A stretch of DNA of 64,000 nt from Candidatus Melainabacteria bacterium 17Bon1m (lineage in GTDB: Bacteria; Cyanobacteriota; Vampirovibrionia; Obscuribacterales; Obscuribacteraceae), in assembly GCA_032128875.1 (NCBI GenBank), contig JAVLKG010000001.1, forward strand, positions 608,001-672,000. Direction: 5' to 3'. A program made the position numbers and the translations under genes. Positions 14,055-42,665 of the stretch are shown in pieces. Position 1 is the first letter of the stretch, and every line of letters starts with the position of its first letter. The notes beneath the pieces were generated by a model. It was not told the origin of the DNA. It did no database searches and worked only from the letters and a program-made list of their open reading frames with translations.

Positions 14055-16604
14055 TTATTTCGCACTGCGTGGCTGAGAGCACGGAACAGCTAAGACAGGA
14101 TCGCCACCAGTCCATGTCTTGTTGTAGAGACTTGGTGTTTGCACAGCCCCTCTGTCGCTGAGCACTTCAGCGCTAACTGACGAGCGCAGCTTGTTAAATG
14201 CTTCGGTGAGTGTCGTGTCTTTGCCTTTGCATTGCAATGCTTCGATCAATTTTCTCGTGAAGATGCTATTCGGGTAATTTTTCGATTCCCATGAAACTTG
14301 ATCTGCCAGGCTGGAGCACAGCACTACTTGCCCGCTTCCAATGTTCAGTCCGCCTGCATCCATTTTTACGCGCTGCAAACCTTTTGCTGCACCGTCGGTG
14401 GTGATGGCGTCTTCGTCTTCATCAGCATCTGATTTTTTCGAGTCTTCGCCCGCAGAACCACTGTGGCAAACATCAAGAATAACAACAACGCGTTTGCTAT
14501 GAACTTGCTCTTGAACTATTTTTGTCAGCCATTGCATCGGAATGCCGGTCGATACCAATTTGAATTTATCGGTGTCGTGGGCAACTAAGAAGTTGACGCC
14601 CACATCTTCTAGCGAAGCACTTCCGTGGCTTGACACGAAAATAACTACCAAGTCGTCCGGTTGCGCTCGTTTGCCTAGCCATCCTTGTCCTAGTTTTGAT
14701 GCAATTTCTTCTTTTGATGCATTGCCATCGGTAAGAAGCTTTACGTGATCTGACTTAAAGTTGCCTTGGGTGACCAGAAAGTTTGCGAAGTCCGTCGCAT
14801 CTTTTGCAGCGTACTTCAGGTTGATTGATTGATCTTTGAAGTTACTGATTCCCACGACCAGTGCCCATTTGTCAGCGACTTTCTTGTCCTGTGCGGAGCT
14901 TGCAAGGGCAGCTGCAGTATAGCTTTGTGCATCCGTTGCGCCTGGCAACGATGCGGTAATTTCTCTCGATTGTTTAAGAAGCGGACCTGCGAGATCCATT
15001 TTCTTCTGCTTCGTATATAGGTCAGCTAGTGCTTCAAGATCTCTGGCAGCCTGTGGACTCTTTTCGCCAAACAGTTTTTGATCGGCGGTCAAAATGCGCT
15101 TGAGTAGCGGCTCTGCTTCGTCGTACTTCTGTTGAACAGTCAACAACTCACTCAAATCTCTAACGATATTGATTGCTTGCAAACTGTCCGGACCCAATGT
15201 TTTTTCTACAAGTTGAAGTGAACTTCTAAACATAGGATCGGCTTTTGCATAGTCTTTTTGCGACAGATAGATTTCTGCCAAACTGCGGGTTGTAAGCGCG
15301 ATATCCGGGTGTTCGGCTCCGAGTTTTTCCTTGCTGATTTTCAAAGCTTTGTTCAACGTTGTTTCTGCTTCAGCAAATTTACGTTCATCAGCAAGAATCG
15401 TTCCCAGCTCAACAAGATCGTGCGCAACTGCCGGATGATCCGCTGTCACCAGTTTTTCATCTAACTCCAATGCTTTTCTTGCGAGCTCCTCAGCTTCGCT
15501 GTAGCGTCCCTGATATCTCGCAATGGACGCTTGAGTAATCCAGCACTTCGAGATTTCTACGTTGTTTTGTCCAAGCGAAGCTTCGATGATTTTGATCGCT
15601 TGTCTGCAGAGTTGTTCTGCTTTTGCATAACGTCCTTCGTCACGATAAAGCAATGCTAGGTCGAGCAGAGCCTTTCCGTAGTCCGGATGCTCTTTGGTGA
15701 GAGCCGCTTCTCGAATTTTGCGAACCTGCTGAAAAGTTTTTCTCGCCTCTTCGTATCGTCCTTGCTTTCTATACAAGTCGCCTAACGGTTCCAAGATAAT
15801 TGCGATGTGTTCATGTTCGAATCCAATCAACGATTGCAGACCAAGTAGTGTCGCTTTGTACAGCGCTTCGGCTTCTTTGTACTTTCCTTTCTCGTTGAGA
15901 ATTTGGGCCAGGTTAAATGCGGTGTACGCGTACAACCAATTTTGCTTGGATGCCGGTGTGCTGAAAAGAGCCAGAGTCCTATCATTGACAGTTTTCGCTT
16001 CGCTTAGCTTGCCCCATTTCAGATACAGTCGCGTCAAACCATTCAGAGGCAGCGCTAGGTTGTAATTGTTTGGGCCAACTTTCTTTGTTCCGATTGCAAT
16101 CGAACGATTGAGAATTTGTTCGCACTCTTGAAAGCGACTTTGGTCTAAATAAAGAACAGACAAATCGCTCATCATTGTGGGGACGAGATCGCTTGCTCTT
16201 TTTTTGCCGGCTTTGTATTTCTTGTTGAGGTGTTTTTTGTCTGATTCTTCAGCTTCGGCGATTGCGCTCTTGAAAAGAGTCTCTGCGTCATTGTATCGGC
16301 CGATTGAGCGATAGGACTCCGCCAACCCAAGGCTAATCTGGGCAGCCTGGTAATCAGATTTTTCGCTGGATTGCTGAGCCTTTTCAAAGAGCTGAATAGC
16401 ATCTTTGTAACGCCCGTGCTGGTAGTTGTTTTGCGCGTTGACGATCAAACTTTCAAGTTTGAAGGGTGCTTCAATTGCCTCCGCGCCGCTGCGTGGGTCG
16501 CGCGCAACAGGCGCTGCGGCGGGTGACTCAGTCGCCTGTACCGATTCGAACATAAGCCCGAAATAGAGTCCAAATAGAATAGTTAGAAGGCGTTTTGATG
16601 ACAT
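14055..16604 (-). CDS. Exported TPR-repeat protein with C-terminal caspase-like (C14) domain
   Basis: Signal-like N-terminus; many TPRs (LG.EHP.A); KWALVVGIS, SSHG and DVCHSG His/Cys dyad. Confidence 0.9.
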   Translation of the reverse strand: MSSKRLLTILFGLYFGLMFESVQATESPAAAPVARDPRSGAEAIEAPFKLESLIVNAQNNYQHGRYKDAIQLFEKAQQSSEKSDYQAAQISLGLAESYRSIGRYNDAETLFKSAIAEAEESDKKHLNKKYKAGKKRASDLVPTMMSDLSVLYLDQSRFQECEQILNRSIAIGTKKVGPNNYNLALPLNGLTRLYLKWGKLSEAKTVNDRTLALFSTPASKQNWLYAYTAFNLAQILNEKGKYKEAEALYKATLLGLQSLIGFEHEHIAIILEPLGDLYRKQGRYEEARKTFQQVRKIREAALTKEHPDYGKALLDLALLYRDEGRYAKAEQLCRQAIKIIEASLGQNNVEISKCWITQASIARYQGRYSEAEELARKALELDEKLVTADHPAVAHDLVELGTILADERKFAEAETTLNKALKISKEKLGAEHPDIALTTRSLAEIYLSQKDYAKADPMFRSSLQLVEKTLGPDSLQAINIVRDLSELLTVQQKYDEAEPLLKRILTADQKLFGEKSPQAARDLEALADLYTKQKKMDLAGPLLKQSREITASLPGATDAQSYTAAALASSAQDKKVADKWALVVGISNFKDQSINLKYAAKDATDFANFLVTQGNFKSDHVKLLTDGNASKEEIASKLGQGWLGKRAQPDDLVVIFVSSHGSASLEDVGVNFLVAHDTDKFKLVSTGIPMQWLTKIVQEQVHSKRVVVILDVCHSGSAGEDSKKSDADEDEDAITTDGAAKGLQRVKMDAGGLNIGSGQVVLCSSLADQVSWESKNYPNSIFTRKLIEALQCKGKDTTLTEAFNKLRSSVSAEVLSDRGAVQTPSLYNKTWTGGDPVLAVPCSQPRSAK

Positions 16605-16801
16605 TGAATACCTTTCGCAAGCGAAAACGAACACTGGGTCAGGAAAGAGATTCTATCGCGAAACCAAGAAGAGAATATTTAATGTTTGAACCTCCTGGCA
16701 TCAAGCGCTGGTGCGGCTTTCGCAGTTGTGCCGCCCCGTTTTCAAAAGTGCATGTGGGTATGTAATATGTACGACCTGCAAACTGATCGAGGGGGAAGGG
16801 A

Positions 16802-17236
16802 ATGATTCGAGCACTTTTCAATGGCTTCGTTGGCGCGGTTGCGCTCACTACTGCTCATCAGGCCCTTCGCAGAGCGTTGCCGGATGCCCCGCAACTGGAC
16901 CGCATGGGCATGAAAGGTGTGGCAAAGGTCTGCAACGCAGTTGGCAGGAGACCGCCAACTGGTTCAGCGCTTTTCCTCTTTGCATTGTTGGGCGATATTT
17001 TGACCAATACCTTCTATTTCAGCCAGGTTGGCTCGAAGCCAGGACTGGGCAGTCTTGGAAAAGGACTTTCGCTGGGCTTGAGTGCCGGGCTCGGCGCAGC
17101 AGCCCTGCCTGTTGTTATGAGTCTAGACAGCGGCGCCAGAAGAAGAACAAGGCGCACCGGTGCTCTCACCGTAGGTCTTTTCTTGTGTGGTGGACTAGCA
17201 GCCGCTATGGCGGCTCAGTGCGCGCCGCGCAGATAA
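16802..17236 (+). CDS. Small membrane protein, about 4 TM, hypothetical
   Basis: RBS gggaagg; Gly/Ala-rich hydrophobic segments. Confidence 0.65.
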   Translation: MIRALFNGFVGAVALTTAHQALRRALPDAPQLDRMGMKGVAKVCNAVGRRPPTGSALFLFALLGDILTNTFYFSQVGSKPGLGSLGKGLSLGLSAGLGAAALPVVMSLDSGARRRTRRTGALTVGLFLCGGLAAAMAAQCAPRR

Positions 17237-22760: not shown

Positions 22761-24683
22761 TTAGTCTTTCAGAGTGGAGACTTTGATCCAAACTAAGTAA
22801 GCCACAAGTGCTAGGACGAGAAACGCGCAGCCGATGTATTTGCACAGGATGAGACCACTGCTCGGCGGACCGTTTTGTGCAATTGCTATTCTGACATTGG
22901 CGAATCTGTCCGCGATAGTCTTATCTTCGGCGCGTTTGGTCTTTCCTCTCTCAAGCGCGAGAACAAGCGGCTTGTTTGAATTGGGACACATGATCATTTC
23001 ACCTTTACTGTCATACGCATGAAGATAGGCGAACTGAGATTCAATCGGAGCATTAGGTAATTCAACACGCCCATTTGGTTTGTTGATGACCGAAAGCATA
23101 GCTACCGTGCCTGGCTCAGGTGAGGTTTCCTGTTCAAAGCTTTCGCCGCGCAGCATACGGTCATCCAGTTTTTTGTCTTTTATTTTGGTATCAGGCGAAT
23201 ACGTATTGAACGAATACGTCTTCACAGGTTCGAGCTTATTCGTGACTGGGTTGCGGTAGGAAAAGAGGGTTTTGGCTTCGTTGGCGATCGGGTATCGATG
23301 GTTGTTTTGGTAAAACGATTGCGCACCGGCCGCGACACTACCCATTGCTCGGGCAGTATTGATTTCTGGCGATGCATCATCCCAAAGTTTTAGACCTGAT
23401 GTGTCTTGCAATCCGTGCTCGATTGGTGTTAACCACTCACAATTGTTGTACTCGCCTTTGAGCAAGCGCATTTCATCTGAGAATGAGCCTCTCCAGATTA
23501 CCGGATGAGCATTATTCTTCAATCCAGAGCCAGTCAGAGCAAAACCCTTTCTGCTTATACCAAGTGAAACAGAACCGTCTATAGTGGCATACGTTTTACC
23601 GACGAGAGCCTGAACGTACGGTGGATATTCCTTGGACGACGGCTCGTTGACCAATGAGGTTATGAAAAGACCGAACACCACGGCAATTGCTGCAAGGGGA
23701 GACAATCTTATGAGTCTTGTCTTCCAAGAATTTTCTTCCTCGATTGTTTTGTCGAGTTCTGCGGTCGCTTGAGTTTTGAAATAGGTGCGCGCGATGCCGG
23801 TAGTTGATGACTGTGTATGAACTGGAAAATCCGACCAATCAACACCCGTATTGTTTTCGTTGGTCAGTTTGTTCGGTGCAAGTGGAAGGGTTGCTCGCGC
23901 ACTGGCTCGAGGATCGGGTCCGAGCTTGTGCAGTCCGCCAGCTACGCCGTCTTGGTTATCCCTACCGGTCTCTTGCTTTGGTGGCGAAAAATCTTCATCC
24001 GCGCTACCCTGATTGCCCGTTTCAAGCTCGTTCGAAAGCATGTCTGCGGGCGACGCATCGGGCGCAAAAGATTGCCTTGATTGAATAGACTGTTGTACTT
24101 TGGGTGGTTGGTGGCTTCCTGTTCGCCGTGGGGAGGCGCGATTTATGCGCGAAACTAATACTGCCTGTGTTGACGGCTGCTTATTATCTTCGGCGTCTGA
24201 TTCAGTTTTTCCTGTGCCAAGTGTTTCTCTCATCTCCTGTTTCAAACCGAGGAGAGTAGACTTATCTCCATTTGTTTTTATCAACCAGGCGGCATAATTG
24301 CCGATTACAGATTTCCGAATGACATGATGCAGTGGCAACAGAGAGGTCGCCAACTTGTGCGCGATTTTGAATTCTACTTCTGCCTGAGCTTGCTGTTCGC
24401 ATTGGTCGTGAGCTTTTGCTAGTTTTAAATACGAGACGATTTTGTCTGCATCGCGACTGCCGCTTTCATCTTGCAGTTTGAGCAAAGTCTCGTACGTTAC
24501 GAGCGATTCCTTGTATAAGGTCGCACGCTGCTGGCTGGCTCCCAGCTTCTTCAGAATTTCGATTCTCTGGGCACTTGCAGAAGTGTCGAGCTGGCTTAGC
24601 AGTTTGCCATACATTTGGCATGCTTCATCAAAGTTGCCTGCCTTAAACTCTAGATCCGCATCTGTTTCTACTTCAGATAACAT
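22761..24683 (-). CDS. Bitopic membrane protein: N-terminal TPRs, disordered linker, TM, extracytoplasmic domain, C-terminal TM
   Basis: TPR-like helices; TM LAAIAVVFGLFITSLV; C-terminal hydrophobic segment; paralogue of 45289-46668. Confidence 0.7.
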   Translation of the reverse strand: MLSEVETDADLEFKAGNFDEACQMYGKLLSQLDTSASAQRIEILKKLGASQQRATLYKESLVTYETLLKLQDESGSRDADKIVSYLKLAKAHDQCEQQAQAEVEFKIAHKLATSLLPLHHVIRKSVIGNYAAWLIKTNGDKSTLLGLKQEMRETLGTGKTESDAEDNKQPSTQAVLVSRINRASPRRTGSHQPPKVQQSIQSRQSFAPDASPADMLSNELETGNQGSADEDFSPPKQETGRDNQDGVAGGLHKLGPDPRASARATLPLAPNKLTNENNTGVDWSDFPVHTQSSTTGIARTYFKTQATAELDKTIEEENSWKTRLIRLSPLAAIAVVFGLFITSLVNEPSSKEYPPYVQALVGKTYATIDGSVSLGISRKGFALTGSGLKNNAHPVIWRGSFSDEMRLLKGEYNNCEWLTPIEHGLQDTSGLKLWDDASPEINTARAMGSVAAGAQSFYQNNHRYPIANEAKTLFSYRNPVTNKLEPVKTYSFNTYSPDTKIKDKKLDDRMLRGESFEQETSPEPGTVAMLSVINKPNGRVELPNAPIESQFAYLHAYDSKGEMIMCPNSNKPLVLALERGKTKRAEDKTIADRFANVRIAIAQNGPPSSGLILCKYIGCAFLVLALVAYLVWIKVSTLKD

Positions 24684-29149: not shown

Positions 29150-29947
29150 TTACTTTTTCGCTTGTTCTAGCGGCACATCCTCGCCTTTCGTGGTGAAGGC
29201 CCAGGCAGAACCGTTTCGTCCTCTAAACTCGAGGTTATTCGACTGCGCGTTATAATCGAAGTCGCCGTGCCACACTGCTCCTGAGTCTTTGTTTTTCCAA
29301 GACACCTGCCCGTTTTCTTCAACGCGGTCCCAGTGTCCCAAGTTGCCGTCAATCCCGACGAGTTGTCCGTTTTCATACTGATATTTTCTGACACGTCCAT
29401 TTCCGGACGGCGCCTCGATAACATTCCCGCCCTTGTCAGTGACGATTCTGCCATTAACGTTGTCTTGAAGAACGAACGAGCCGTCCACGTTGAATTCAAC
29501 GTGAAGACCATCTGGATGTCCGGAGACGTCGTATTGAATATTGCCAACTGCGTCGACTTTGACGTTTTCGACGGTTTGCATAATCTCGCCTTTGTCATTG
29601 CGTACGACAAATTTGCCATCCGCTTGTCTTTCCATCTTGACGCCTGCTTCGTTTGTAATCGATGTGATTTCGCCCTGGTCGTTGATGCTCACGTCAAGCG
29701 GACCGCGCTTTTCATGGGTGTCCGGTCTGCACATCTGCGGTTCGGTTGAATCTGCCGGTTTGTCGCTGAGCTGTTTCAGCAACAGCTCATCCGGAGCTAG
29801 AAAACATGCATTTTGATTGGGTTTGGTAAGGCAATACACTTCATTGAACTTCGGATCGATCATTGGAGTACTTTCCAGCGGACACGAATTTGCGGCCGCC
29901 TGCGCTGAAGTACTGTCATTAAACTGATAAACGTCTGGATAACCCAT
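29150..29947 (-). CDS. Hypothetical beta-rich protein with YD/RHS-like hairpins
   Basis: RBS ggagga before ATG 29947; NDQGEITSI and GRVRKYQYENGQLVGI hairpin motifs. Confidence 0.6.
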   Translation of the reverse strand: MGYPDVYQFNDSTSAQAAANSCPLESTPMIDPKFNEVYCLTKPNQNACFLAPDELLLKQLSDKPADSTEPQMCRPDTHEKRGPLDVSINDQGEITSITNEAGVKMERQADGKFVVRNDKGEIMQTVENVKVDAVGNIQYDVSGHPDGLHVEFNVDGSFVLQDNVNGRIVTDKGGNVIEAPSGNGRVRKYQYENGQLVGIDGNLGHWDRVEENGQVSWKNKDSGAVWHGDFDYNAQSNNLEFRGRNGSAWAFTTKGEDVPLEQAKK

Positions 29948-30207
29948 AAAATCGTCCTCCCACCGCGCCATCGCGTCATTGGTTGATGCGTAGAACGATA
30001 CTGGCGACTTGTATCCAATTTGTTTATGCGCCGGAAATTCTTTGGCGGAAACAAAAAACGCCAAGGGGTGACGGCGCGACCTCGCTCCTTGCCGGTCAAA
30101 ACCCTGCTCACCGTCGAAGATTAAACGCTGGATTGTAAGCCAGGTGGGCGTTTAACGGCTTTAGCTTAGGTGGTCCCCGTTTTGGGCACATATATGGATA
30201 AGATCAT

Positions 30208-33200
30208 ATGGTATCCCGTATGCCGCCTGACCAGATTACTGCGAAGAGTGAGCCGAACAACGTTGAGCGCCCGGACTCTGAAAAAACAGAGCAGTCCGGC
30301 GCGCATAACAGTTTCATCAGAGAACTGGCCAATTCGGTTGTCTTTTCGGCTATCGAGCAGCCGTCGCTTGGCGTTGCGCAGTTCATCAGCAACGACGCCA
30401 TGGGCAGCGTTAAAAACTTCTTTTCAAAGGGCGGAATAGAGGCGCCGGAGCCGGCGAAGTTCAATTCCGCTAATTGGTATGCCCAGACGTTTGGAAGCGC
30501 CGTAGGCATGATTTTGCCCTTCGCACTCACGAAAAAAGGGCTCGGGAAATTGGGTGCTTTTGGTGAAACAGCGGCAGTGGAAACCAGTGCCCTGTCGCGC
30601 CAAGCGGCGATTGGCATGAGTGTCAAAGAGTCCGCCATTACAGGTGGGGTTTACGGAACCCTATTCACCCCGAGCGACCAGGCGGCCCGGAATGCCGGCT
30701 GGTTATCCTTTCTAGGAGACAGAGCCGTAAGTGGAGGGGGCAGCGCCCTAACTTTTGCGACATTGACCGCAGGGAGTTTGGGAGTCGGACGGTTAGCCGA
30801 AACCAGCGTAGCCTCCCGATTTGGCTTGGCTCCTATACTAAACAGTCCAATCACTTCCGGTACTTTCGGTGGCTTGCCGGGCGGTTATGTCGCTGCCCAG
30901 TACGATTCGCTGGCGAGACATCGGCGCCCGGCTACTGCTGAGGAAATTACGGAGTCCATGTTCGGTATGGCTGTAGTGGGCGGCGCATTCGGTTCTGCCG
31001 CGTATTTAGGGCGTCTGAAATCAGGCACAGGCGATCTGCAGGTAAGACCAGGAGAACAAGAAAAGCCTTACAGTCAAACTGTCGGAAGAGCTGAGGGCAA
31101 TTCCAATGTTGTGGCACTGAATACGGTGCCGATCGAACCAGGAAGAACTATTGCTACTGGTGAAACTCGCGGCGTAACGAACGAAACTCGTGGTGTGACC
31201 AACGAAACTCGCAATATTGAAAGCGAAACGCGACCGACAACTGTTGCAGAAGTCCAACCACCTAAATCAATTAATCCCAATGAGTTTAAGACAGGGCAAG
31301 GCGTTGACCAATCGCTGCGAGTCGAGTTGACTGCTCAAGAGCAAAGTCTGTGGCGTCAGACACAGCAGGCGAAAACTATCGAAGAATGGAGACAACTCAC
31401 CGAACAAATTGATGAGCTTCCTCTAGATAAGAGATCTTGGTTTAGCGAAACATTAGATCGCCAGGGCAAGAATTTGACTGAGGTTGAGTTGAATGCGCTC
31501 TGGCCAAAACTGTTGCAGGAAGATCCGCACCAGGGCTATCGAATCGCCAAGCTTATTGGACCAGAACGTACTACTCAAGTTTGGGAGCAGCAACTGAAGT
31601 CTGTTCAGGCGTTTGAGAATCCTGCTCTGGCAGAGCAATTGGCGAAGACTATGGTCTTTCTCGAACCTTCAAAACAGATGGCAGCTTTGGAGTCGCTTCT
31701 AAACCTAGATAAAAGACCATCCTATGTCGACATGGCTTCGGTTATGTTGGCTAAGGAAAATCAGCTGCCTGCTGCAAAACTTCTCGAATCGCGTGGCATC
31801 ACACCGCAGATTGAAACTGGCTCCGTTGCGCCGTCTGTTTGGGCCGACTGGGCTCTGTCTCTAAAACAAGGCGAGATCCGGGATGGCGTTCTTGACCAGG
31901 TTCGCAAAAAGCTATCCGGTTCTAAACAAAATCCGGCTGAAGAATTGAATTCAGTTTTCAAACTCGCAAAAGATAGGCTAGAACCGAAAGAGTATGAGCT
32001 GTTTAACTCTATGCTCACCGGTATCACACCGAAATACAACTCTGCGGAAATAGCGTCTGTTCGCTCAACGGCGCTGAAAGATGTCGATCCGAAATTCATC
32101 AGTCGCATGTCGTTTTTCGAACGCGACTGGCCGATGGCTGAGCGGATTGCAGAAAGAAATCCAGAGCTGATCAGAGCTCTCGCATCTAACTCGAAATTCA
32201 ATCCAAATCTCAAGCGCAGCGCATACATTGCGGAGCTGATGTCCAGAGAGCCTCCACCAACTGTTGAACAATTGACAAAGTCGTTGTTGGAAAGCAATCG
32301 AAAATCGGAAGAAAACAGGGAGTACTCACTGCTTTCTCCTGGCGATGTGAAAGCTCTCGTTGAGCATGGCGTGAAGGTTGAGCCCGGACAAGTGCCAGAA
32401 GCATTGCGCTCTGTTCAGTCTGATGTTTTCCAGATGTTTGATTTGAAGGGAGAAAAGCCGATACACCACGGTCGTTTGCTCAATGCACTCACGCTTGCTA
32501 ACGAGCTGGGCAAGAAGAATCCTGAGGCATTCAATCGTGATTTTAAAGAACCGATTGAGTCGGCGCTAACGAGTTCGGATTACAGATACGCACGCAGGCT
32601 TGATGCGTCCAAAGCGCTGGGCGAGCTGCAGCGTGGTGGCTTTGATGGAGCGATGGCGCTGCGCATGCCGGAACTGCGCATGGGCAAGATTGTCGAGATA
32701 GCTCCTGAAGCGCGAACAGCGATGCGTAATTCTGTTGAAAAGTCACTGTTTAATGTCAACGAGCTGAGACGGATGATTGGTGACGGACCTCTGGGCAAGC
32801 TCATGCCTTCTGTTTTTGGTAAAGCAGAGCAAGGTGGAATTGTAGGCAGAGAACAGCATAAAACGCATGACTTCACACTAGATAATCACTTGCTTGGCGT
32901 GGTTGAGCGTGTAAAGAATGATAGCCGCTTCAATGAATTGATGCCCAATGACCAGGTCAACGTTTTGTGGGCTGCACTTTTGCACGACGTTGGCAAAATG
33001 GAAAACATGATCGATTTCGATCACAACCGAACATCCGTAAGTATGGCTTGGGGGGTGCTTCGTTCGCTCGGCTATTCAGATACCCGCATTCAACGAATTA
33101 CCGACATCATGAGCAAGGATGCAGAACTCAGTTTCAATCCTGATGTCAAAAATTCTGTCACTCTTAAAGATCAAAAAGCCATGGATGATGTGGTGAACAA

Positions 33201-34185
33201 CTACCGCCATGCCGATGCGCTGAAAATGGTGGCAATACTAAATCGTTCTGACATCAAGTCGGTCAAGAAGAATGAAGCTTGGTTTACTGAAGATGTCGTT
33301 TCAGAGCTGGGCAAGATCAGCGAAATGACAGAACCTCGAGTGGCTGAGTTGAACAGGCATCTGTTGCCATTGATGTCGACGAAGATGCCCGAAGGTTATG
33401 GTGCGCATGTGATGTCCGATTACAGTGTGTTCGGGCATTCTTCAAGGGATTTAGCCGGTCAATTTCTCAAGCAACGTTCAACTATTGAATCGCCAGAATA
33501 CTCAACCTCGTTCTCCGTTTTCACGCCAGAAAATCATCGAGTCTACGAAGATGGCTCGAAAGTTATTGCACTCGTCACTGGTCCCTTCGAGCATGTTGCA
33601 CAAGCGTACAGGAACAACCTTTCGACTGGTACTTCTGTCGGCTGGAACGGACAGGTAGAGCTCGTCGGCAGATGGAGCACAGACAGCAAAGCAAATGCAT
33701 TTGCTGCAGAAGCTGAAGCGAAGCTGACAGAACTCGGCATTCCACCGGCGCGAAATGTGGCGGCTGAGAATTTCCCCAGGCTCAATCAACTCCGTCGTGT
33801 AGCTGGACAATTCGACACACTCACAGACCTTATTACCGCTGCCGGTGAAACAGACCCTTATGTGCTAGCGGTGAAGTCTCTTAATCGAATGATGACGACC
33901 GAGAAAGATGGCTCTGCGCTCAAAACAAACAACGAAGGCAAACTGAACAACGCCATATTGTCCGGTATTGGTTTGCTGCGCAGCGGCAATCAACCTGTTT
34001 ATTTCGAAGGACTGACGCAGGCAGAACTCGCGAAACTTTGGAACGGCAATATCCCTGATTTCGTCTCTGCTGGCCCTGCAAATCAAGCTCCAGCCAACGC
34101 TCTGCGCGTCACTGCTGACGTTGCATCTTCCGCCAAGGAGCACAACCTGCCGATTGTTGTTTTGAACGATCAGACTGTCAGGTAG
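30208..34185 (+). CDS. Large effector-like protein: hydrophobic N-terminus, helical middle, HD domain, putative ART-like C-terminal domain
   Basis: HD signature QHKTHDFTLDNHLL...WAALLHDVGK...H...RSD; C-terminal FGH...STSFS...NNE; Gly/Ala-rich hydrophobic helices at aa ~40-270. Confidence 0.7.
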   Translation: MVSRMPPDQITAKSEPNNVERPDSEKTEQSGAHNSFIRELANSVVFSAIEQPSLGVAQFISNDAMGSVKNFFSKGGIEAPEPAKFNSANWYAQTFGSAVGMILPFALTKKGLGKLGAFGETAAVETSALSRQAAIGMSVKESAITGGVYGTLFTPSDQAARNAGWLSFLGDRAVSGGGSALTFATLTAGSLGVGRLAETSVASRFGLAPILNSPITSGTFGGLPGGYVAAQYDSLARHRRPATAEEITESMFGMAVVGGAFGSAAYLGRLKSGTGDLQVRPGEQEKPYSQTVGRAEGNSNVVALNTVPIEPGRTIATGETRGVTNETRGVTNETRNIESETRPTTVAEVQPPKSINPNEFKTGQGVDQSLRVELTAQEQSLWRQTQQAKTIEEWRQLTEQIDELPLDKRSWFSETLDRQGKNLTEVELNALWPKLLQEDPHQGYRIAKLIGPERTTQVWEQQLKSVQAFENPALAEQLAKTMVFLEPSKQMAALESLLNLDKRPSYVDMASVMLAKENQLPAAKLLESRGITPQIETGSVAPSVWADWALSLKQGEIRDGVLDQVRKKLSGSKQNPAEELNSVFKLAKDRLEPKEYELFNSMLTGITPKYNSAEIASVRSTALKDVDPKFISRMSFFERDWPMAERIAERNPELIRALASNSKFNPNLKRSAYIAELMSREPPPTVEQLTKSLLESNRKSEENREYSLLSPGDVKALVEHGVKVEPGQVPEALRSVQSDVFQMFDLKGEKPIHHGRLLNALTLANELGKKNPEAFNRDFKEPIESALTSSDYRYARRLDASKALGELQRGGFDGAMALRMPELRMGKIVEIAPEARTAMRNSVEKSLFNVNELRRMIGDGPLGKLMPSVFGKAEQGGIVGREQHKTHDFTLDNHLLGVVERVKNDSRFNELMPNDQVNVLWAALLHDVGKMENMIDFDHNRTSVSMAWGVLRSLGYSDTRIQRITDIMSKDAELSFNPDVKNSVTLKDQKAMDDVVNNYRHADALKMVAILNRSDIKSVKKNEAWFTEDVVSELGKISEMTEPRVAELNRHLLPLMSTKMPEGYGAHVMSDYSVFGHSSRDLAGQFLKQRSTIESPEYSTSFSVFTPENHRVYEDGSKVIALVTGPFEHVAQAYRNNLSTGTSVGWNGQVELVGRWSTDSKANAFAAEAEAKLTELGIPPARNVAAENFPRLNQLRRVAGQFDTLTDLITAAGETDPYVLAVKSLNRMMTTEKDGSALKTNNEGKLNNAILSGIGLLRSGNQPVYFEGLTQAELAKLWNGNIPDFVSAGPANQAPANALRVTADVASSAKEHNLPIVVLNDQTVR
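31162..31233 (+). repeat. Intragenic 21-bp repeat encoding ETRGVTN
   Basis: gaaactcgcggcgtaacgaac/gaaactcgtggtgtgaccaac/gaaactcgcaatattgaaagc/gaaacgcga. Confidence 0.8.
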
Positions 34186-34388: not shown

Positions 34389-35591
34389 ATGCTGAAAACC
34401 ACGCCCTTGCATTCCCGTACGTCTGCGCTCATGCAAGCCAACCAATGGCGGCGCTGGGCCGGCTATTCCGTAGCTAGCTCGTATGAGATGACACACGACC
34501 GGGAATACTATGCAATTCGCAATGCCTGCGTCTTGCTCGACGTTTCACCGCTCTGCAAATACCGAATCAAAGGCGCGGACGCGCTCAAGTTTCTCAATCG
34601 CCTCGTTACTCGCGATGTGAGCAAGATTTCCGTCGGCGGGATGTTGTACACACCGTGGTGCGACTCTCGAGGAAAGATACTGGACGATGGCACGGTCGCA
34701 ATGCTGGCAGCCGACGAATACCGTCTTACTTCAGCTGAGCCGAACATGCGCTGGCTTCAAGATAACGCAGTCGGAATGCAAGTTGAGATCACTGACGTTT
34801 CCGACCAGATTGCAGCAATGTCGCTGCAAGGTCCTAAGTCTCGTGATTTGCTGATGACCCTGTGCGACGCTCCTTTGGGTGGCGTTAAGTATTACGAGTT
34901 CGTCAACACGAAGATTGATGGCATAGATGTGATGATTTCTCGCACCGGGTATACAGGCGATCTTGGTTTTGAACTTTGGGTCGATGCGACCAAGGCTGAG
35001 AAGGTTTGGGATGCGGTAGTGAAGGCGGGAAAGTCTTTCGCACTTCAACCGGCAGGCATCTGGGCTTTAGATGTTTCTCGTATTGAAGCCGGGCTGATCA
35101 TGCTGGACATCGACTACACGCCAGCGAACAAGGCAATGACTGACGCTCAAACTTCAACTCCAATCGAGCTCGGATTGAATTGGGCGATTAGCTGGAAGAA
35201 GGGCAACTTCATCGGCCGAAAGGCTTTGCTAGCCGAAAAGGAAAATGGTTCAACGATTCAATTTGTCGGACTGGAAATTGATCATAAAGAGTTCGAGCGC
35301 CAACATCATGAATTAGGACTTACTGTTCCTTATCCATTCATGGCTTGGAGAGCTGTAATTCCATTGTATGTCGATGGTTCGCAAGTTGGCTATGCCACTA
35401 GCGGAGTCTGGTCGCCTACGTTGAAAAAGTATCTCGCATTCGGGCATGTGCAGCCGAAGTATGCGCAACCCGGCTCGGTGGTGACAATTGATTTGACAGT
35501 CGATCGTTTCCGTCGTCCGTTTAACGCAAAGGTGACCAAGCTACCCTTCTTCAATCCGCCAAGGAAGAAAGATATCCTAGGAGCGAAATGA
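34389..35591 (+). CDS. GcvT-like folate-binding aminomethyltransferase
   Basis: KTTPLH, LDVSPL, SRTGYTGDLGFEL, RIEAG, FIGRKAL, WSPTLKK. Confidence 0.92.
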   Translation: MLKTTPLHSRTSALMQANQWRRWAGYSVASSYEMTHDREYYAIRNACVLLDVSPLCKYRIKGADALKFLNRLVTRDVSKISVGGMLYTPWCDSRGKILDDGTVAMLAADEYRLTSAEPNMRWLQDNAVGMQVEITDVSDQIAAMSLQGPKSRDLLMTLCDAPLGGVKYYEFVNTKIDGIDVMISRTGYTGDLGFELWVDATKAEKVWDAVVKAGKSFALQPAGIWALDVSRIEAGLIMLDIDYTPANKAMTDAQTSTPIELGLNWAISWKKGNFIGRKALLAEKENGSTIQFVGLEIDHKEFERQHHELGLTVPYPFMAWRAVIPLYVDGSQVGYATSGVWSPTLKKYLAFGHVQPKYAQPGSVVTIDLTVDRFRRPFNAKVTKLPFFNPPRKKDILGAK

Positions 35592-37183
35592 GCAAATCAA
35601 GCAACAATCAATATGACGTAATAGTCATCGGCGGTGGGCACAACGGTCTGGTCAACGCCGCATATTTAGGCAAAGCCGGTAAGAAAGTTTTGGTATTGGA
35701 ACAGCGCCACACCGTCGGTGGTGCCACCATTACAGAGGGAGTGTATCCAGGCTTCAAGTTTTTAATCGCTTCTTATTTGATCAGTCTTTTGAGACCTGAT
35801 GTGATTCAAGAGCTGGAGCTTGTTCGCCACGGCTTGGAAATCATGCCATTGGAGAGTACTTTTGTTCCTCTAGCAAACGGCAACTATTTGGCTGATTGGC
35901 CTGACCACGAAGCAACTCGACACGAGATAGAGCGGCATTCTAAACGCGACGCCGAAGCATACGATGAGTATGCGCGCGTGATGAGAAGACTGGCCATTGC
36001 TCTGCGACCACTGTTAGATATGATCCCTCCCGATCCGACTTCGGTCACGCCGAAAGATTTGGAAACGATGGCTCGTGTGCGTGGCGTACTCAACAATATG
36101 ACACGCGATGATTTTCATTTACTGTCGCGTTTGATGACCATGAGCGCTGCTGACTTTCTTGATGAATGGTTTGAAGGCACCGCGCTGAAAGGCACCAAGT
36201 GCACCAGTGGGATTATTGGCACATTCATGGGACCTCGTTCGCCTGGAACGGGCTATGTGCTGCTGCACCACTACATTGGCGAATTGGATGGAACATTCAG
36301 AGCCTGGGGCTTTGCGCGCGGGGGGACCGGCGCATTGAGTCAGGCGATTGCGAGTGCGGCTCTAGAGGCTGGAGTTGAGATCAAAACGAATTCTCCTGTC
36401 GCACACGTCAACGTCAAAAATGGTGAAGCCTCCGGTGTGACCCTCGAGAACGGCGACGAATATTCTGCCTCCATTGTTGTATCGAATGCCGATGTGAAAA
36501 GAACCTTCTTGAAGTTGATCGACCCGAAGCATCTTCCCGATGATTTCGTGAGCGACGTAAATAGATTTCGTATCGCGAGCCCCGCGTGCAAAGTCAACCT
36601 GGCGCTCGATGGTTTGCCCGAGTTTACTTCTATGCCGAAGGGAAAAGAAGCGCTTTTGCGTGGTTCTATCGAAATTGCACCGAGTATAGATTATGTTGAA
36701 CAAGCGTATGATGATGCCAAATATGGTGGCTGGTCACGCAAGCCTTTTATGGACGCGTTGATACCATCACTGCTCGATCCGGGAATGGCGCCACCCGGAA
36801 AACACGTGATGTCGCTCTTTGTTCAATACGCCTCCTCTGACTTGGAAGGCGGCTGGAATGAGGAGAAGAAGGCTCAGTTTCTCGATGTAGTCATCGATAC
36901 GCTTGCAGAGCACGCGCCCAACTTGAAAAAGATTTTGATTCATAAGCACATCATGACTCCGTGGGATTTGGAGCGCATGATTGGTCTTACAAGTGGACAC
37001 ATCTTCCACGGAGAATTGGCGCTGCAACAGTTGTTCTTCCTGCGTCCATCACCTCAGTGGTCTAACTACAGGACACCCATCAAAAACATGTACATGTGCG
37101 GCAGCAGCACACATCCCGGCGGCTGCATCACTGGCGCTCCCGGGCGCAACGCGGCACTGGCAATTCTAGAGGATCGCCCATGA
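35588..37183 (+). CDS. FAD-dependent oxidoreductase (phytoene dehydrogenase-like, PYROXD2-like)
   Basis: GGGHNGL Rossmann motif, RGGTGAL, APPGKH, CGSSTHPGG; ATGA overlap with the upstream gene. Confidence 0.92.
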   Translation: MSKSSNNQYDVIVIGGGHNGLVNAAYLGKAGKKVLVLEQRHTVGGATITEGVYPGFKFLIASYLISLLRPDVIQELELVRHGLEIMPLESTFVPLANGNYLADWPDHEATRHEIERHSKRDAEAYDEYARVMRRLAIALRPLLDMIPPDPTSVTPKDLETMARVRGVLNNMTRDDFHLLSRLMTMSAADFLDEWFEGTALKGTKCTSGIIGTFMGPRSPGTGYVLLHHYIGELDGTFRAWGFARGGTGALSQAIASAALEAGVEIKTNSPVAHVNVKNGEASGVTLENGDEYSASIVVSNADVKRTFLKLIDPKHLPDDFVSDVNRFRIASPACKVNLALDGLPEFTSMPKGKEALLRGSIEIAPSIDYVEQAYDDAKYGGWSRKPFMDALIPSLLDPGMAPPGKHVMSLFVQYASSDLEGGWNEEKKAQFLDVVIDTLAEHAPNLKKILIHKHIMTPWDLERMIGLTSGHIFHGELALQQLFFLRPSPQWSNYRTPIKNMYMCGSSTHPGGCITGAPGRNAALAILEDRP

Positions 37184-38727
37184 GCACTTACAACACGATC
37201 ATTTTGGGTTCTTCCCCCAACGCTTTAACTGCAGCGTGCTACTTGGCTCGCAGCGGTAAAAAGGTTTTGGTGCTCGAACCGACGGAACACATCGGAGGAG
37301 CTGTTTCAACAGCTCAGTTTGCTGATGGCTTCAAAGCCGACATCGGTTTGATGACCGGTCGCCTCGATGCAGAGATCGTCAAAGATTTGAAGTTGAGCGA
37401 GCACGGATTGGAAGTTATCGAACGCAGTAGTCTCACGAGCCTATTGCCTGGCGGCAAGAGTTTCACACTCTCCTGCGACCTCAATGCAGCCGAAAAAGTA
37501 ATTGCAGGAATTTCTCCTGCTGACGCGAAGAAGTACAAGCCTTTTATGAATCTCGTAAGTTTGGCCAGTGACTTCTTGAAAAGTGCCTACAACGTGACAC
37601 CGCCCGCCAACCATCCTCCTTCTAAAGATGATGTTGAGGGGCTTTCTAAATTGAGCGCTCAGCTCAAAGGCTATGGTCGTCGCGAGATGACCGAAGTAAT
37701 GCGTCTATTGGTGATGTCTGTGCGCGACCTCACTGATGAATGGTTTGCTAGTCCAGAACTCAAAGGACTGCTCGCGACAGCTGCGGTAAGAGGCATCAAC
37801 CAGGGTCCTTTCGCCGGTAACACGGCATACACTCTTCTGCATCATCTTGCTCAAGGTGATGGCTTTTTCCGTGCCACTGCTAAAGGTGGCATTGGAGCAC
37901 TCTGCCAGGCGCTGGCCGCAGCTGCGAAATCGTATGGTGTAGAAATTCGTACGAAGTGCGGATCGCTCACCATCAACGTCGAAGATGGTGTCGCTACGGG
38001 GGTTGCCGCTGGTACCGAGTCGATTGAAGCTTCGCTAGTAATTTCAGATTACGATGCTCGACATACATTTACTCATTTGGTTGCACCGCCTGAACTTGAG
38101 CCTGAATTCAATCGCGCGGTGAAAAACCTTAAGTATCGTGGCGCGGTAGCACGTTTGAACTTTGCTCTAAAGGACCTGCCAAAATTCGCAGGGATTACAG
38201 ATGAGGCGATGAAAGGAATGCTTGTTTTGGCGCCTAGTGTCGAATACCTTGAAAAAGCGTATGACGCCGCCAAACGCGGAGACGTGTCCGCGCGACCATA
38301 TTTGGAAGTTTCTATTCCAAGCTTGAGCGACGCGACTCTTGCACCCTCCGGCAAGCATGTGATGTCGGTTTGGATGCAATATGCACCATGTCATAGCACT
38401 GCAAATCCTGACCACCTGCGTGATCTGGTACTCAAACAATTGAGTGAGTTTTGCCCCAATCTAAAATCGCTGGTAGAACACTCACAGGTGCTCTTACCAA
38501 ACGAGTACGAGTCACAGTATTACTTGACCGAAGGCAATCTTTACGGTGCAGAGATAAATCTCGCCCAGGCATTCTACTTGAGACCCCTTCCCGGTTTTGC
38601 CCAGTACAGCACGCCGATCTCACAGCTCTACCTGTGCGGATCGGCAACACATCCTGCCGGAATTAGCGGGCTGTCCGGACGAAACGCTGCACGGGAATTA
38701 GGCGTTAGAGATATGGTCCCGGCATAA
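37180..38727 (+). CDS. Second FAD-dependent oxidoreductase paralogue with degenerate Rossmann motif
   Basis: IILGSSPNAL, KGGIGAL, APSGKH, CGSATHP; ATGA overlap. Confidence 0.88.
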   Translation: MSTYNTIILGSSPNALTAACYLARSGKKVLVLEPTEHIGGAVSTAQFADGFKADIGLMTGRLDAEIVKDLKLSEHGLEVIERSSLTSLLPGGKSFTLSCDLNAAEKVIAGISPADAKKYKPFMNLVSLASDFLKSAYNVTPPANHPPSKDDVEGLSKLSAQLKGYGRREMTEVMRLLVMSVRDLTDEWFASPELKGLLATAAVRGINQGPFAGNTAYTLLHHLAQGDGFFRATAKGGIGALCQALAAAAKSYGVEIRTKCGSLTINVEDGVATGVAAGTESIEASLVISDYDARHTFTHLVAPPELEPEFNRAVKNLKYRGAVARLNFALKDLPKFAGITDEAMKGMLVLAPSVEYLEKAYDAAKRGDVSARPYLEVSIPSLSDATLAPSGKHVMSVWMQYAPCHSTANPDHLRDLVLKQLSEFCPNLKSLVEHSQVLLPNEYESQYYLTEGNLYGAEINLAQAFYLRPLPGFAQYSTPISQLYLCGSATHPAGISGLSGRNAARELGVRDMVPA

Positions 38728-39033: not shown

Positions 39034-39237
39034 TTCAAACTCCAATCAGTGCAGTCAGTAGAGGTCCCCGTTGCAAGACTGGTGAATAATTTCAATGTTC
39101 CTTCTTCCTAATCTTCTTGAGCGTGAAGTTAAGTGATCCGTAGATTAGACTTCGCCTTGCGATGCTTGGGCTGGTGATAGACTCTTTGCGTTGTGAAGAA
39201 GGCGCCCCGGTGCAGTACTGTTGTAAAGGAAAAAGTC

Positions 39238-40032
39238 ATGACAATTAGATCTCACGTAATCGACTATGTAATCCTCGGCGACGATATGCAGGCTGTAGAG
39301 ATCGAGCTTGATCCAGGAGAAACAGTGATTGCCGAAGCCGGCGCCATGAATTACATGGAAGAAGGCATTTCATTCGAAGCAAAGATGGGCGACGGAACGG
39401 ACGCCGATCAGGGCGTTATGGGCAAATTGTTCGGCGCCGGAAAACGTCTTTTGGCTGGCGAGTCATTGATGATTACTCACTTCACCAACCAGGGCCGCGG
39501 CAAACAAAAGGTTGCCTTCGCCGCACCTTACCCGGGCAGAATTATTCCGATGAATCTCGGGGAAATGGGCGGTGAGGTTCTTGTTCAACGGGATGGTTTC
39601 TTGTGTGCTGCATTCGGTACTAAACTGAACGTTGCTTTTACTCAAAAGCTTGGTGCTGGTTTTTTCGGTGGGGAAGGATTTGTTCTTCAAAGCTTGAAGG
39701 GTGACGGTCTGGCATTTGTGCATGCCTGCGGCGCCATTATCAAACGTGAACTGCGCGGTGAAACGCTGCGTGTTGATACCGGATGTATTGTTGCATTCAC
39801 TCCTGGTATTTCTTACGATATTCAGCGTGCTGGAAATCTGAAGTCAATGATCTTCGGTGGTGAAGGACTATTCCTCGCTACGCTTAGAGGAACAGGAACA
39901 GTCTGGATGCAGAGCCTGCCATTCTCCCGTCTTGCTAACCGCATTCTCGAACATGCTCCACAAAGTGGTGGAAACACAGTCGAGCAAGGCGGCGGGTTGA
40001 TGGGCCTTGGCAGAATGTTCGAATCAGAGTGA
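39238..40032 (+). CDS. TIGR00266/AIM24 family protein
   Basis: [41 protein letters not shown]. Confidence 0.93.
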
Positions 40033-41564: not shown

Positions 41565-42665
41565 CTAAGCGGCAATTTCTAGCGGAACAACCTTGGTATC
41601 CAATGGTTTGCTGTTTTGTTCTTCGATAAAGGTGAGAAACGCTACCAGCGTCATCTCTTTCTTAGACAGTCCGGTACGATGCCTGACTGGAACATTCAAC
41701 CTGCTCATAATTGATGGCAATGTGCCGTCTTCAGCGGCGGAGAGGATGGCTGAGTGAATGTAACTCTTCCTGCAAACGGCAGGTGTGTTTCCTAAGGCTT
41801 GCGAGGCAGCTTTGACAGCGGCGCTTATGAAGCGTTTTGTTGCCGTCTTACTGAGATCTTCCGGCATCTCGCAGAGTTCAGAAAGTGCAACTACACTACC
41901 TTTCCAGGTCCTGAAGTCTTTGGCTGTAATAGATTCTCTGGCAACTTCTAAGAGATAAGAATTGACGTCTGATGAAGTAATTGCGACATACTCGTCATTG
42001 GCATTCTGATATGAGAAAAGAAACTCTCCATCGCTCTTTTCACAGTCTTCTATAACCGCAGCCAGTGCTTCGTCACTGCAATTCATCTCGATTTGCTTGC
42101 CTGATTTGCCTCTGAAATTGAAACGAATATTGCTGTCGGAACGCTCGACATGTTCTGAAGATAGAGTTGTAGCTCCTCTCGAATCGTTTGCGTGCAAATA
42201 CTGTTTGTTTCCTACTCTCAAGCAGGCTTTGTCGAGCAAGCGCACAACGGCGGCAACGACACGTCTCTTGTTGAGTTCGTCAATCTTCAGATCTCCCTGG
42301 ACATTTCTGCGAATTGTCGGGAGCAAACGGGCAAACTGCCGCAGGCGTCCGTATTTATGCGCTGCGCTCGCCTCGTGCCACTTTGGATGATAAATGTATT
42401 GCTTTCTGCCGGCATCATCAATGCCAGTTGCTTGAATGTGTCCGTCGCTATGAATACAGATCCATACATTTTTCCAAGCCGGCGGAATCACTAGACTGAC
42501 GAGCCTTTCGCGGGTTTCCTTGCAGGCAATTGTTCGCCCTGCATCGTCTATGTACTTGAAGCCCTTACCGTTTTTTTTGCGAGTGTAGCCTGTTCTGAAA
42601 TCCTGTATATATTTGAGTCCTGCGCTCTGCGCGCGTGCATGCCAATCATTCATATCGTTTGTCAC
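41565..42665 (-). CDS. Bacterial DNA topoisomerase IB
   Basis: IPPAW, GRKQYIYH, LRVGN, FRGKSG, KDFRTW, LGNTPAVCRKSY (catalytic Tyr). Confidence 0.95.
   Translation of the reverse strand: MTNDMNDWHARAQSAGLKYIQDFRTGYTRKKNGKGFKYIDDAGRTIACKETRERLVSLVIPPAWKNVWICIHSDGHIQATGIDDAGRKQYIYHPKWHEASAAHKYGRLRQFARLLPTIRRNVQGDLKIDELNKRRVVAAVVRLLDKACLRVGNKQYLHANDSRGATTLSSEHVERSDSNIRFNFRGKSGKQIEMNCSDEALAAVIEDCEKSDGEFLFSYQNANDEYVAITSSDVNSYLLEVARESITAKDFRTWKGSVVALSELCEMPEDLSKTATKRFISAAVKAASQALGNTPAVCRKSYIHSAILSAAEDGTLPSIMSRLNVPVRHRTGLSKKEMTLVAFLTFIEEQNSKPLDTKVVPLEIAA

Follow-up and report, generated by a model that had tools for sequence, protein, structure and literature searches.

An HD phosphohydrolase domain in tandem with a predicted ADP-ribosyltransferase-fold domain, behind an order-specific N-terminal module, in an Obscuribacterales-type bacterium

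In a 64,000-nucleotide stretch of DNA from Candidatus Melainabacteria bacterium 17Bon1m (assembly GCA_032128875.1, contig JAVLKG010000001.1, positions 608,001 to 672,000 of the forward strand; the whole stretch is referred to below as the window), one long gene encodes a protein of 1325 amino acids (aa) which is best explained as a four-part protein of an Obscuribacterales-type bacterium: a carrier module, a scaffold, an HD phosphohydrolase domain and a C-terminal domain with the predicted fold of an ADP-ribosyltransferase (ART), together forming a modifying enzyme that would use nicotinamide adenine dinucleotide (NAD). The probability of this reading is put at roughly 0.55. It draws on the domain composition, the fold of a high-confidence structure model, the conservation of candidate catalytic residues, a constant pairing of the HD and C-terminal domains, a multi-copy family built on the N-terminal module, and the restriction of that family to one lineage. 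The two enzymatic activities may be coupled, and the protein may be associated with a membrane and perhaps exported. Its parts, and the evidence on which each was delimited, are as follows.

30208-34185, + strand: the whole open reading frame (ORF), 1325 aa plus stop, with an ATG start; the true start is possibly Met5 (30220)
30208-30312, + strand: hydrophilic, poorly conserved N-terminal leader, aa 1-35 (sequence, hydropathy, alignment)
30313-31017, + strand: Gly/Ala/Ser-rich, moderately hydrophobic N-domain, aa 36-270 (sharing among paralogues, composition, hydropathy)
31018-31242, + strand: variable Thr/Glu/Gly-rich linker, aa 271-345 (alignment, tandem repeat)
31243-32757, + strand: conserved middle region, aa 346-850, presumed helical scaffold (conservation, composition)
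32758-33342, + strand: putative HD metal-dependent phosphohydrolase domain, aa 851-1045 (Pfam, NCBIfam, profile match to a solved structure, invariant residues)
33343-34182, + strand: C-terminal domain with a predicted ART fold, aa 1046-1325 (predicted model, structural neighbours, conservation)
33640-33897, + strand: predicted five-helix insertion within the preceding domain, aa ~1145-1230, after the fourth core strand and ahead of the strand of Glu1243 (secondary structure of the model)

The C-terminal domain

The first-pass annotation of this gene, made from the sequence without database searches, had read it as an HD phosphohydrolase fused to an ART-like domain. It was largely right about the parts and over-specific in likening them to SidE of Legionella; the ORF and all the motifs that it listed lie where it had placed them, by arithmetic on the translation, and its suggestion that the last part would model as an ART is borne out by structure prediction. 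A first model, built on 24 sequences, had a best predicted local distance difference test score (pLDDT) of 78.9, with the other four models at 52.6-59.3, and placed CteC first both in Foldseek (E 0.19) and in an exhaustive structural search with VIA (Z 5.1), followed by Tpt1 and DarT. A second alignment of 47 sequences, including domain-only stretches from 28 related genomes and 18 proteins from the search of representative proteins described below, gave a model of the 281 C-terminal residues with a pLDDT of 92.8 and a predicted template modelling score of 0.90 (pLDDT of the five models, 89.8-92.8). Foldseek ranks 1-4 for this second model are all CteC chains. In the exhaustive search only 19 of 48,161 Protein Data Bank (PDB) representatives have Z >= 2, and CteC is at the top with Z 7.3 (173 residues aligned, root-mean-square deviation 5.9), 3 Z units ahead of the next row.

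Below CteC, the ART rows are Tpt1 (Z 4.1), DarT/DarTG (3.3, 3.0 and 2.9), SopF (2.8), Scabin (2.4), PARP1 (2.3 and 2.1), mouse Tpt1 (2.2), pierisin-1 (2.1) and PARP4 (2.0). Of the 19 rows, 12 are ART-superfamily proteins: the titles identify five as such, and the other seven are assigned by the family to which the protein belongs. Of the remaining rows, four are MarR-type regulators that align only with model residues ~100-209, the helical insert, one is PcrA, and two, TreX (Z 2.4) and 9ld3, have no certain classification. Among Foldseek's best 999 chains, six reach Z >= 2, and all are CteC (four entries, Z 5.8-7.4). As a lead only, a language-model look-up returned ADPrib_exo_Tox clusters first, with a score of 0.81; Foldseek against viral predicted structures gave nothing meaningful, the best match being a phage "nuclease" at E 0.022 with a TM-score of 0.18. 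The C-terminal domain is therefore given an ART fold as a high-confidence prediction from the model, and it is termed a new family of that fold, outside the named ART sequence families, because no curated ART sequence family or PDB sequence matches it. The window's own domain has a single, spurious 13-residue match in Pfam.

The residues singled out earlier as candidate catalytic elements are conserved far more strongly than chance would allow. They comprise His1077 (in VFGH, codon at 33436), Ser1099 (in STSFS, 33502; Ser1099-x-Ser1101 spans 33502-33510), the NLSTG segment (aa 1137-1141) and the late NNEGKL motif, which starts at Asn1241 (33928) and contains Glu1243 (33934); to these can be added Glu1128 (33589). 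Across 29 C-terminal domains down to 31% identity, His1077, Glu1094, Ser1095, Ser1099, Ser1101, Glu1128, Asn1242, Glu1243 and Lys1245 are invariant. When 47 sequences are compared, Glu1128 and Glu1243 remain invariant, and His1077, Glu1094, Ser1099, Ser1101, Gln1132, Thr1140, Gly1141, Asn1242 and Lys1245 are at least 90% conserved. Such conservation of polar residues at ART motif positions argues for a (predicted) active enzyme rather than a dead domain.

An H-G-[S/T] sequence is the first motif of the diphtheria-toxin/PARP-type ARTs, in which the second motif is Tyr, while Ser-x-Ser is of the cholera-toxin type. Since the GHS of the C-terminal domain (His-x-[Ser/Thr]) recalls the former type and its Ser-x-Ser the latter, the predicted triad appears to be a hybrid, His-Ser-Glu. 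The model places His1077 at the end of its second strand (model residues 30-33) and Ser1099 and Ser1101 at the start of the following long strand (55-62). Glu1128 comes just ahead of strand 86-90, and Asn1242-Glu1243 begin strand 199-203; the helices of the insertion occupy model residues 102-184, between these last two strands. For CteC, passages of PMC10810742 describe R65, S97 and E220 as the R-S-E motif, and D134 as an essential residue that keeps the nicotinamide ribose in place; ubiquitin binding, by the same account, requires the four helices inserted between beta4 and beta5 (F157-R194). His1077, Ser1099/Ser1101 and Glu1243 follow one another in the same order as R65, S97 and E220, with approximately the same spacing and the insertion in the same position. 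By its spacing, Glu1128 would correspond to Asp134 of CteC, as the conserved acidic residue between the Ser strand and the insertion.

The HD domain and its tandem with the C-terminal domain

The HD phosphohydrolase named in the first-pass annotation is well supported by comparison with relatives. Its motif residues are His894 (32887), His926-Asp927 (32983) and Asp1015 (33250), and in 29 sequences down to 37% identity Arg881, Gln883, His887, His894, His926, Asp927, Lys930, Asp936, His939 and Asp1015 are all invariant. The Pfam HD family (PF01966) is matched at E <= 0.01 by 18 of the 29 relatives, and by six of 30 distant relatives with 22.1-31.1 bits, at or over its cut-off. In NCBIfam the best matches are to the HD part of the GlnD models (E 2e-6 to 2e-5), along with HDIG. 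A profile of the domain run against all PDB sequences finds a single match, the HD hydrolase 2pq7 (E 5.7e-5), with the H, HD and DH motifs aligned; no SidE-family chain appears in that search at E <= 10. An additional invariant segment, GGxVGRxQHxxHD, lies ahead of the first HD helix. As judged from its sequence, this region is real and canonical, a probable metal-dependent HD phosphohydrolase.

The two domains form an obligate tandem, one module. A profile of the C-terminal domain, searched against 1.84 billion representative proteins, has matches at E <= 0.001 in 78 clusters, and for 76 of these the E-value is 1e-10 or lower, with no tail of weaker matches and no bridge to named ART families. 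In 52 of the 78 there are at least 230 residues upstream of a complete C-terminal domain, and 51 of these 52 carry an HD domain that ends 0-47 residues before it, the exception being P0082. A joint query of the HD and C-terminal domains finds matches in 35 of 107 genomes of the order, including 11 of the 12 other genomes of the genus, and none in the other 72, many of which are incomplete. The 38 matches listed all lie within the joint query, 35 of them starting within its first 14 residues and ending within its last 60, and sit in open frames of 177 to 3114 aa. A scan with a single peptide pattern over one genome for each of 185,579 species, which gives a lower bound, found 22 loci, all in metagenome-assembled genomes (MAGs) of the lineage. 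The module has been found only in Obscuribacterales/Melainabacteria-labelled genomes (the labels include Candidatus Melainabacteria, Obscuribacterales and Obscuribacteraceae), a few of the MAGs bearing the names of photosynthetic cyanobacteria.

Two giant relatives, P0088 (3089 aa) and P0077 (3070 aa), have the HD-ART module in the interior of the chain and not at its C-terminus; in P0088 it is followed by a DSP-type phosphatase that matches Pfam polymorphic-toxin and NAD-kinase-fused phosphatase families. Two HD-ART homologues in other genomes (G016:C312:3234-4643 and G069:C1:177500-178885) have one in-frame stop each, one TGA and one TAG, and could be pseudogenes or the result of sequencing errors.

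The N-terminal carrier module

The N-domain is Gly/Ala-rich, as the first-pass annotation had noted (14.0% Gly, 15.3% Ala and 10.2% Ser over aa 36-270), and has no match in Pfam or NCBIfam. It is preceded by a hydrophilic leader, and ahead of residue 43 every 19-residue Kyte-Doolittle window stays below 0.9; a Sec-type signal is therefore lacking, again as first proposed. In the same genome, five further full-length proteins and one 123-aa fragment share only aa ~25-280 with the window protein, at 27-34% identity. Of the five full-length paralogues, one continues into a Phage_30_3 domain (E 1e-15, with a sub-threshold match to NADAR-DarT1), one into a LOG/SLOG domain (E 7e-19), and three into C-termini without a family.

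The expectation that related genomes would show the same N-terminus with swapped C-termini proved correct on a large scale. A profile of the six N-domains has 743 matches, in 96 of the 107 genomes of the order; each of the 96 has 1-26 copies, and the open frames that contain them are about 120 to 1770 aa long. In 300 other sampled genomes of the phylum the profile has no match at E <= 1e-5. Forty ORFs were chosen for variety of genome and length (not at random) from 150 listed matches, and the module is N-terminal in all 40. Their Pfam cargo consists of LOG/SLOG (three), a tetratricopeptide-repeat (TPR) region with a methyltransferase (two), a methyltransferase (one), GNAT (one), Phage_30_3 (one), an FAD oxidoreductase (one), Tcp10_C repeats (one) and a sub-threshold ChaN-like match (one), and the other 29 have no family. 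Of the 40 HD-ART proteins with a length of 900 aa or more, 27 have the N-domain; some of the others may lack it because their metagenomic sequences are cut short. The N-domain is an order-specific carrier module with swapped cargo. Its inferred role is to attach to a membrane, or to insert into one, and to place or deliver that cargo.

In a language-model look-up, the N-domain most resembles unnamed phage proteins (0.93) and, more weakly, polyvalent-protein domains (0.86-0.89), the ejection protein gp16 of phage P22 (0.85) and the pre-toxin domain PT-TG (0.85), all of which serve as leads only. A single-sequence scan of viral contigs, a method that reaches close relatives only, found no relatives of it.

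Some further features of the family were seen in passing. One paralogue (B; G000:C15, L002:1225-3627; 801 aa) has a C-terminal region of ~170 residues without a family after its Phage_30_3/NADAR-like domain (aa 497-622). Two others, C (a 954-aa frame) and D (a 756-aa frame), are 41% identical along a stretch of ~450 residues that extends well past the N-domain. Upstream of the 482-aa paralogue E (G000:C12) lies a divergent ORF of at least 439 aa (L005:3-1319, - strand) that also has Gly/Ala hydrophobic stretches and could be related to the carrier module, distantly or in inverted form. In other genomes, N-domain genes can occur in tandem pairs (G069:C11:93369-94058 with 95872-96540, and G092:C104:13289-13948 with 16357-17112), in contrast to the dispersed copies in the window's genome.

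Linker, middle region and start of the gene

The repeat in the linker, another element of the first-pass annotation, is a 21-nt unit in 2.4 copies at 31162-31212, coding ETRGVTN. Among homologues the linker (aa ~271-345) varies in length and cannot be aligned. The Leu/Glu/Lys-rich middle region that follows is conserved from end to end in an alignment of 20 homologues. In the window protein it matches no family in Pfam or NCBIfam, and four of 30 relatives have weak HEAT_2 matches there; from its sequence, it is presumed to be a helical scaffold.

In a word-indexed search, the protein has 23 homologues with identities of 45-95%, and 21 of these span 99-100% of the query; where they are named at all in the source, they are called "hypothetical protein". 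The full-length alignment took in 20 of the 23, at 46-95% identity, and the motif residues picked out by the first-pass annotation are invariant in all 20. Homologues at 62% identity or less begin at the residue aligned to Met5 (MPPN...). Because these more distant homologues start there, the true start may be at 30220, four codons inside the annotated ATG at 30208. The whole protein has no match among PDB sequences at E <= 1.

Genomic neighbourhood

Upstream of the gene lie an esterase and a thioredoxin-domain protein. No small gene follows it, as had already been remarked; the place is taken by gcvT, 177 nt downstream, beyond which are two adjacent amine-oxidase-type flavoproteins (35588-38727, + strand). 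The synteny with gcvT is kept in only three of 22 related loci, the remaining downstream genes being diverse housekeeping genes. At nine other orthologous loci, the downstream ORF encodes an aldolase II, methyltransferase, DAO, protein kinase or FtsJ protein in seven cases and matches no family in the other two.

The base composition of the window is unremarkable, and no tRNAs were found in it. Its genome assembly, 7.55 Mb in 35 contigs, is 93% complete; Photo_RC, the photosynthetic reaction centre family, was not found in it, which fits a non-photosynthetic lineage. Elsewhere in the window are a bacterial type IB topoisomerase (41565-42665, - strand) and an AIM24-family protein (39193-40032, + strand). 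Two ORFs have no Pfam family at E <= 0.001: one of 640 aa (22761-24683, - strand), and one of 304 aa (29150-30064, - strand) which lies directly upstream of the HD-ART gene on the opposite strand.

Proposed mode of action and alternatives

The preferred reading would have the protein work as follows. The N-module, ~235 residues of Gly/Ala-rich helices, would be membrane-associated and would place or deliver the cargo, to which it would be joined by the variable repeat linker and the scaffold of ~500 residues leading to the HD domain. With NAD+ as the donor, the ART domain would ADP-ribosylate a macromolecule bound by the helical insert. In a second step, the HD domain would act on a phosphodiester or pyrophosphate bond of the same ADP-ribose adduct, and would either trim or relay the adduct, as the phosphodiesterase of SidE does, or remove it, as the HD domain of GlnD removes uridine monophosphate (UMP).

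A number of observations weigh against this reading. For the ART fold, none of the 29 C-terminal domain sequences matches an ART family in Pfam at E <= 0.1, the profile of the domain finds nothing among PDB sequences at E <= 10, and Foldseek against the PDB finds nothing at E <= 0.001 with either model (best E 0.14, with the second). The Z of 7.3 to CteC falls in a range graded as middling, typical of the best matches for models without clear relatives; the equivalence of His1077, Ser1099 and Glu1243 to CteC R65, S97 and E220, which is taken from strand order and spacing only in a predicted structure, is tentative, and the first of these residues is an invariant His, not the Arg of CteC. For the HD domain, the window protein itself scores 17.7 bits against PF01966 as a whole and 21.2 bits with the domain alone, just under the 22-bit gathering cut-off. 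The four hydrophobic stretches of the N-domain peak at 0.99-1.26, where a classical membrane helix usually reaches 1.6; of the earlier description of this region as hydrophobic, Gly/Ala-rich and membrane-inserting, the composition stands, while insertion into membranes, with a sub-threshold hydropathy maximum of 1.26, stays an inference. Much of the cargo in the N-domain family is not toxin-like (GNAT, methyltransferases, FAD oxidoreductase). The orthologue occurs as a single copy, is inherited vertically with its whole length conserved (45-95% identity) and lies among housekeeping genes, which speaks against export; no immunity gene was found downstream of it at the window locus or at the nine other loci scanned, and seven paralogue neighbourhoods (+/-8 kb) show no common gene family and no conserved partner. 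Finally, searches of the 93%-complete genome for TssC, VirB4, Phage_sheath_1 and WXG100, whose controls were positive in reference genomes and which did not cover other export routes, gave no match to any of the four. With no marker of type IV, VI, VII or contractile-injection systems found there, the term "effector" used in the first-pass annotation goes further than we would.

Export nevertheless has points in its favour. The N-domain family is multi-copy, cargo-swapping and lineage-restricted; its cargo comes in part from the NAD/ADP-ribose network, for which passages of PMC9503650 list ART, NADAR and SLOG together in the processing of ADP-ribose derivatives; and the nearest ART structure, CteC, is an injected effector. 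As between an exported HD-ART protein and a cell-autonomous, membrane-tethered writer and eraser of a mark, the odds seem to us roughly even. The reading as a classical polymorphic toxin was set aside, given the lack of an immunity gene, the vertical orthologues and the large share of cargo that is not toxin-like. A bolder form of the export idea is that the family makes up a lineage-specific delivery platform operating without the known injection machines, in which a self-inserting N-domain, comparable in principle with the ejection proteins of phages or with pre-toxin domains, would bring as many as 26 different enzymatic cargoes per genome into other cells. The HD-ART protein would then be a two-step NAD-dependent modifier of independent evolutionary origin, with ADP-ribosylation and, as in SidE, subsequent processing of a phosphodiester, and with a hybrid His-Ser-Glu triad. 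It is speculative, and we consider it unlikely.

Another possible account, to be held tentatively, keeps the same domains in a protein that is not exported: a membrane-tethered, cell-autonomous regulator in which the ART domain writes, and the HD domain erases or processes, a mark on the cell's own macromolecules in the manner of GlnD, with the N-domain as the common anchor of the order. Such a regulator would suit the single-copy orthologue, conserved at full length in 11 of the 12 other genomes of the genus and lying among housekeeping genes; it would also suit the want of an immunity gene or conserved partner, the failure to find TssC, VirB4, sheath and WXG100 genes in the genome, and the presence of ordinary enzymes (GNAT, methyltransferases, DAO oxidoreductase, LOG) in the N-domain cargo. 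The HD domain, too, has its best family-level match in the HD part of GlnD (E 2e-6 to 2e-5), but with 23-26 bits this is far under the GlnD cut-offs of 519-959. Moreover, 1-26 copies per genome with swapped and mostly unknown C-termini is typical of conflict or effector families, not of housekeeping anchors, no HD-ART match was found in those 72 of the 107 genomes of the order (many incomplete), and some of the cargo belongs to the NAD/ADP-ribose conflict network (the ART itself, the NADAR-like and SLOG/LOG paralogues, and the DSP-phosphatase of P0088).

It is rather improbable that the ART-fold domain is an NAD(P)+ glycohydrolase or nucleotide-signal enzyme, with the HD domain degrading its ADP-ribose-type product, for NAD+ depletion or for the making and breaking of a signal. 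ART-fold NADases do exist; an ART-fold Rhs toxin reportedly defines Tne5, a novel family of NAD(P) glycohydrolase effectors. HD domains commonly hydrolyse small nucleotides, which would suit this scheme, as would the LOG/SLOG and NADAR-like cargo of the paralogues, placed by passages of PMC9503650 in the processing of ADP-ribose derivatives. Against it, the large conserved insertion where CteC binds its protein substrate and the scaffold of ~500 residues point to recognition of a macromolecule, and the PADLOC defence models, run on the protein and its five paralogues, gave no match beyond a sub-threshold one to Cas3-HD at 15.4 bits.

That the likeness to ARTs reflects a widespread beta-sandwich-plus-helices arrangement and no homology, or that the domain is a catalytically dead binding module, leaving an HD hydrolase with a novel C-terminal domain, would agree with the Foldseek searches, with moderate best Z scores of 7.3-7.4 and with the lack of a sequence-profile link to ARTs, but is very improbable when 12 of the mere 19 chains at Z >= 2 out of 48,161 are ART members from different clades, two models from different alignments have the same top matches, and the polar residues at ART motif positions hold over 47 sequences.

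Significance

ARTs are central to bacterial toxins, defence and signalling, and new clades of them (CteC, SidE, DarT) have repeatedly brought new chemistry. What the HD-ART protein adds is a predicted ART-fold family outside all sequence libraries, with an apparent His-Ser-Glu motif set and always fused to an HD domain, a fusion that predicts two enzymes acting in turn on one NAD-derived adduct. Its N-domain exposes a large unannotated superfamily limited to one order of non-photosynthetic relatives of the cyanobacteria, and whether that domain serves as an anchor or for delivery bears on the lifestyle of the lineage, be it free-living, predatory or host-associated.

Comparison with known systems

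Full-text literature searches on the lineage, and broader ones, found no account of the HD-ART or N-domain families; supplements lay outside their scope. With GlnD and the HDIG hydrolases the protein shares the H...HDxxK...H...D motif set and, with GlnD, the plan of a transferase and a removing HD domain in one chain. It differs in that no nucleotidyltransferase or ACT domains were found in it. A GlnD homologue was considered and set aside, as only the HD region matches, far under the family cut-off.

Zhang et al. (2012) are said to have described polymorphic toxin families with a shared N-terminal trafficking domain. Like these toxins, the carrier family has one N-terminal module, alternative C-terminal enzymatic domains and several copies per genome. 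Unlike them, it has no adjacent immunity genes or cassettes and no known secretion marker was found for it, and the orthologues of the HD-ART protein are vertical, without C-terminal swapping. Tpt1/KptA, DarT and the PARPs are weaker fold matches to the C-terminal domain than CteC (Z 2.0-4.1), and their second motif is Tyr where Ser-x-Ser is found here.

The SidE family of Legionella, in which SdeA has the order DUB-PDE-mART-CC, carries out phosphoribosyl ubiquitination (PMC11668277, abstract). The window protein is like SidE in having a phosphodiesterase-type domain directly before a (predicted) mono-ART in one long polypeptide, and in having no immunity gene. It is unlike SidE in the canonical H...HD...D metal-site motif of its HD domain and in having no deubiquitinase (DUB) domain in the Pfam scan. 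The 19 structural rows at Z >= 2 and the second, CteC-only list contain no SidE chain, which leaves room for a distant relation, and VirB4 was not found in the genome, in which no search was aimed at Dot/Icm-specific components. Of the SidE-like character proposed in the first-pass annotation, then, the logic and the domain order stand as an analogy; homology is not supported, the HD profile having led to 2pq7 and the ART model to CteC.

The closest solved structure is that of CteC from Chromobacterium violaceum (PDB 8UX2 and 8HTC-F), a mono-ART acting on Thr66 of ubiquitin, with Z 7.3-7.4 over 165-173 aligned residues. Identity between the two is ~10%, with no sequence-profile link, and membership of the CteC family has not been assigned, in view of this low identity and of the invariant His in place of Arg. 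The predicted insertion of the C-terminal domain is also longer than that of CteC (~85 residues against 38), an extra beta/alpha extension follows at its C-terminus, and the domain always stands behind an HD domain, in a protein of more than 1000 residues from an organism without ubiquitin of its own. What the two have in common, by the model and by the CteC structure as presented in parts of PMC10810742, is the mART core and an all-helical insertion just before the strand that carries the catalytic Glu.

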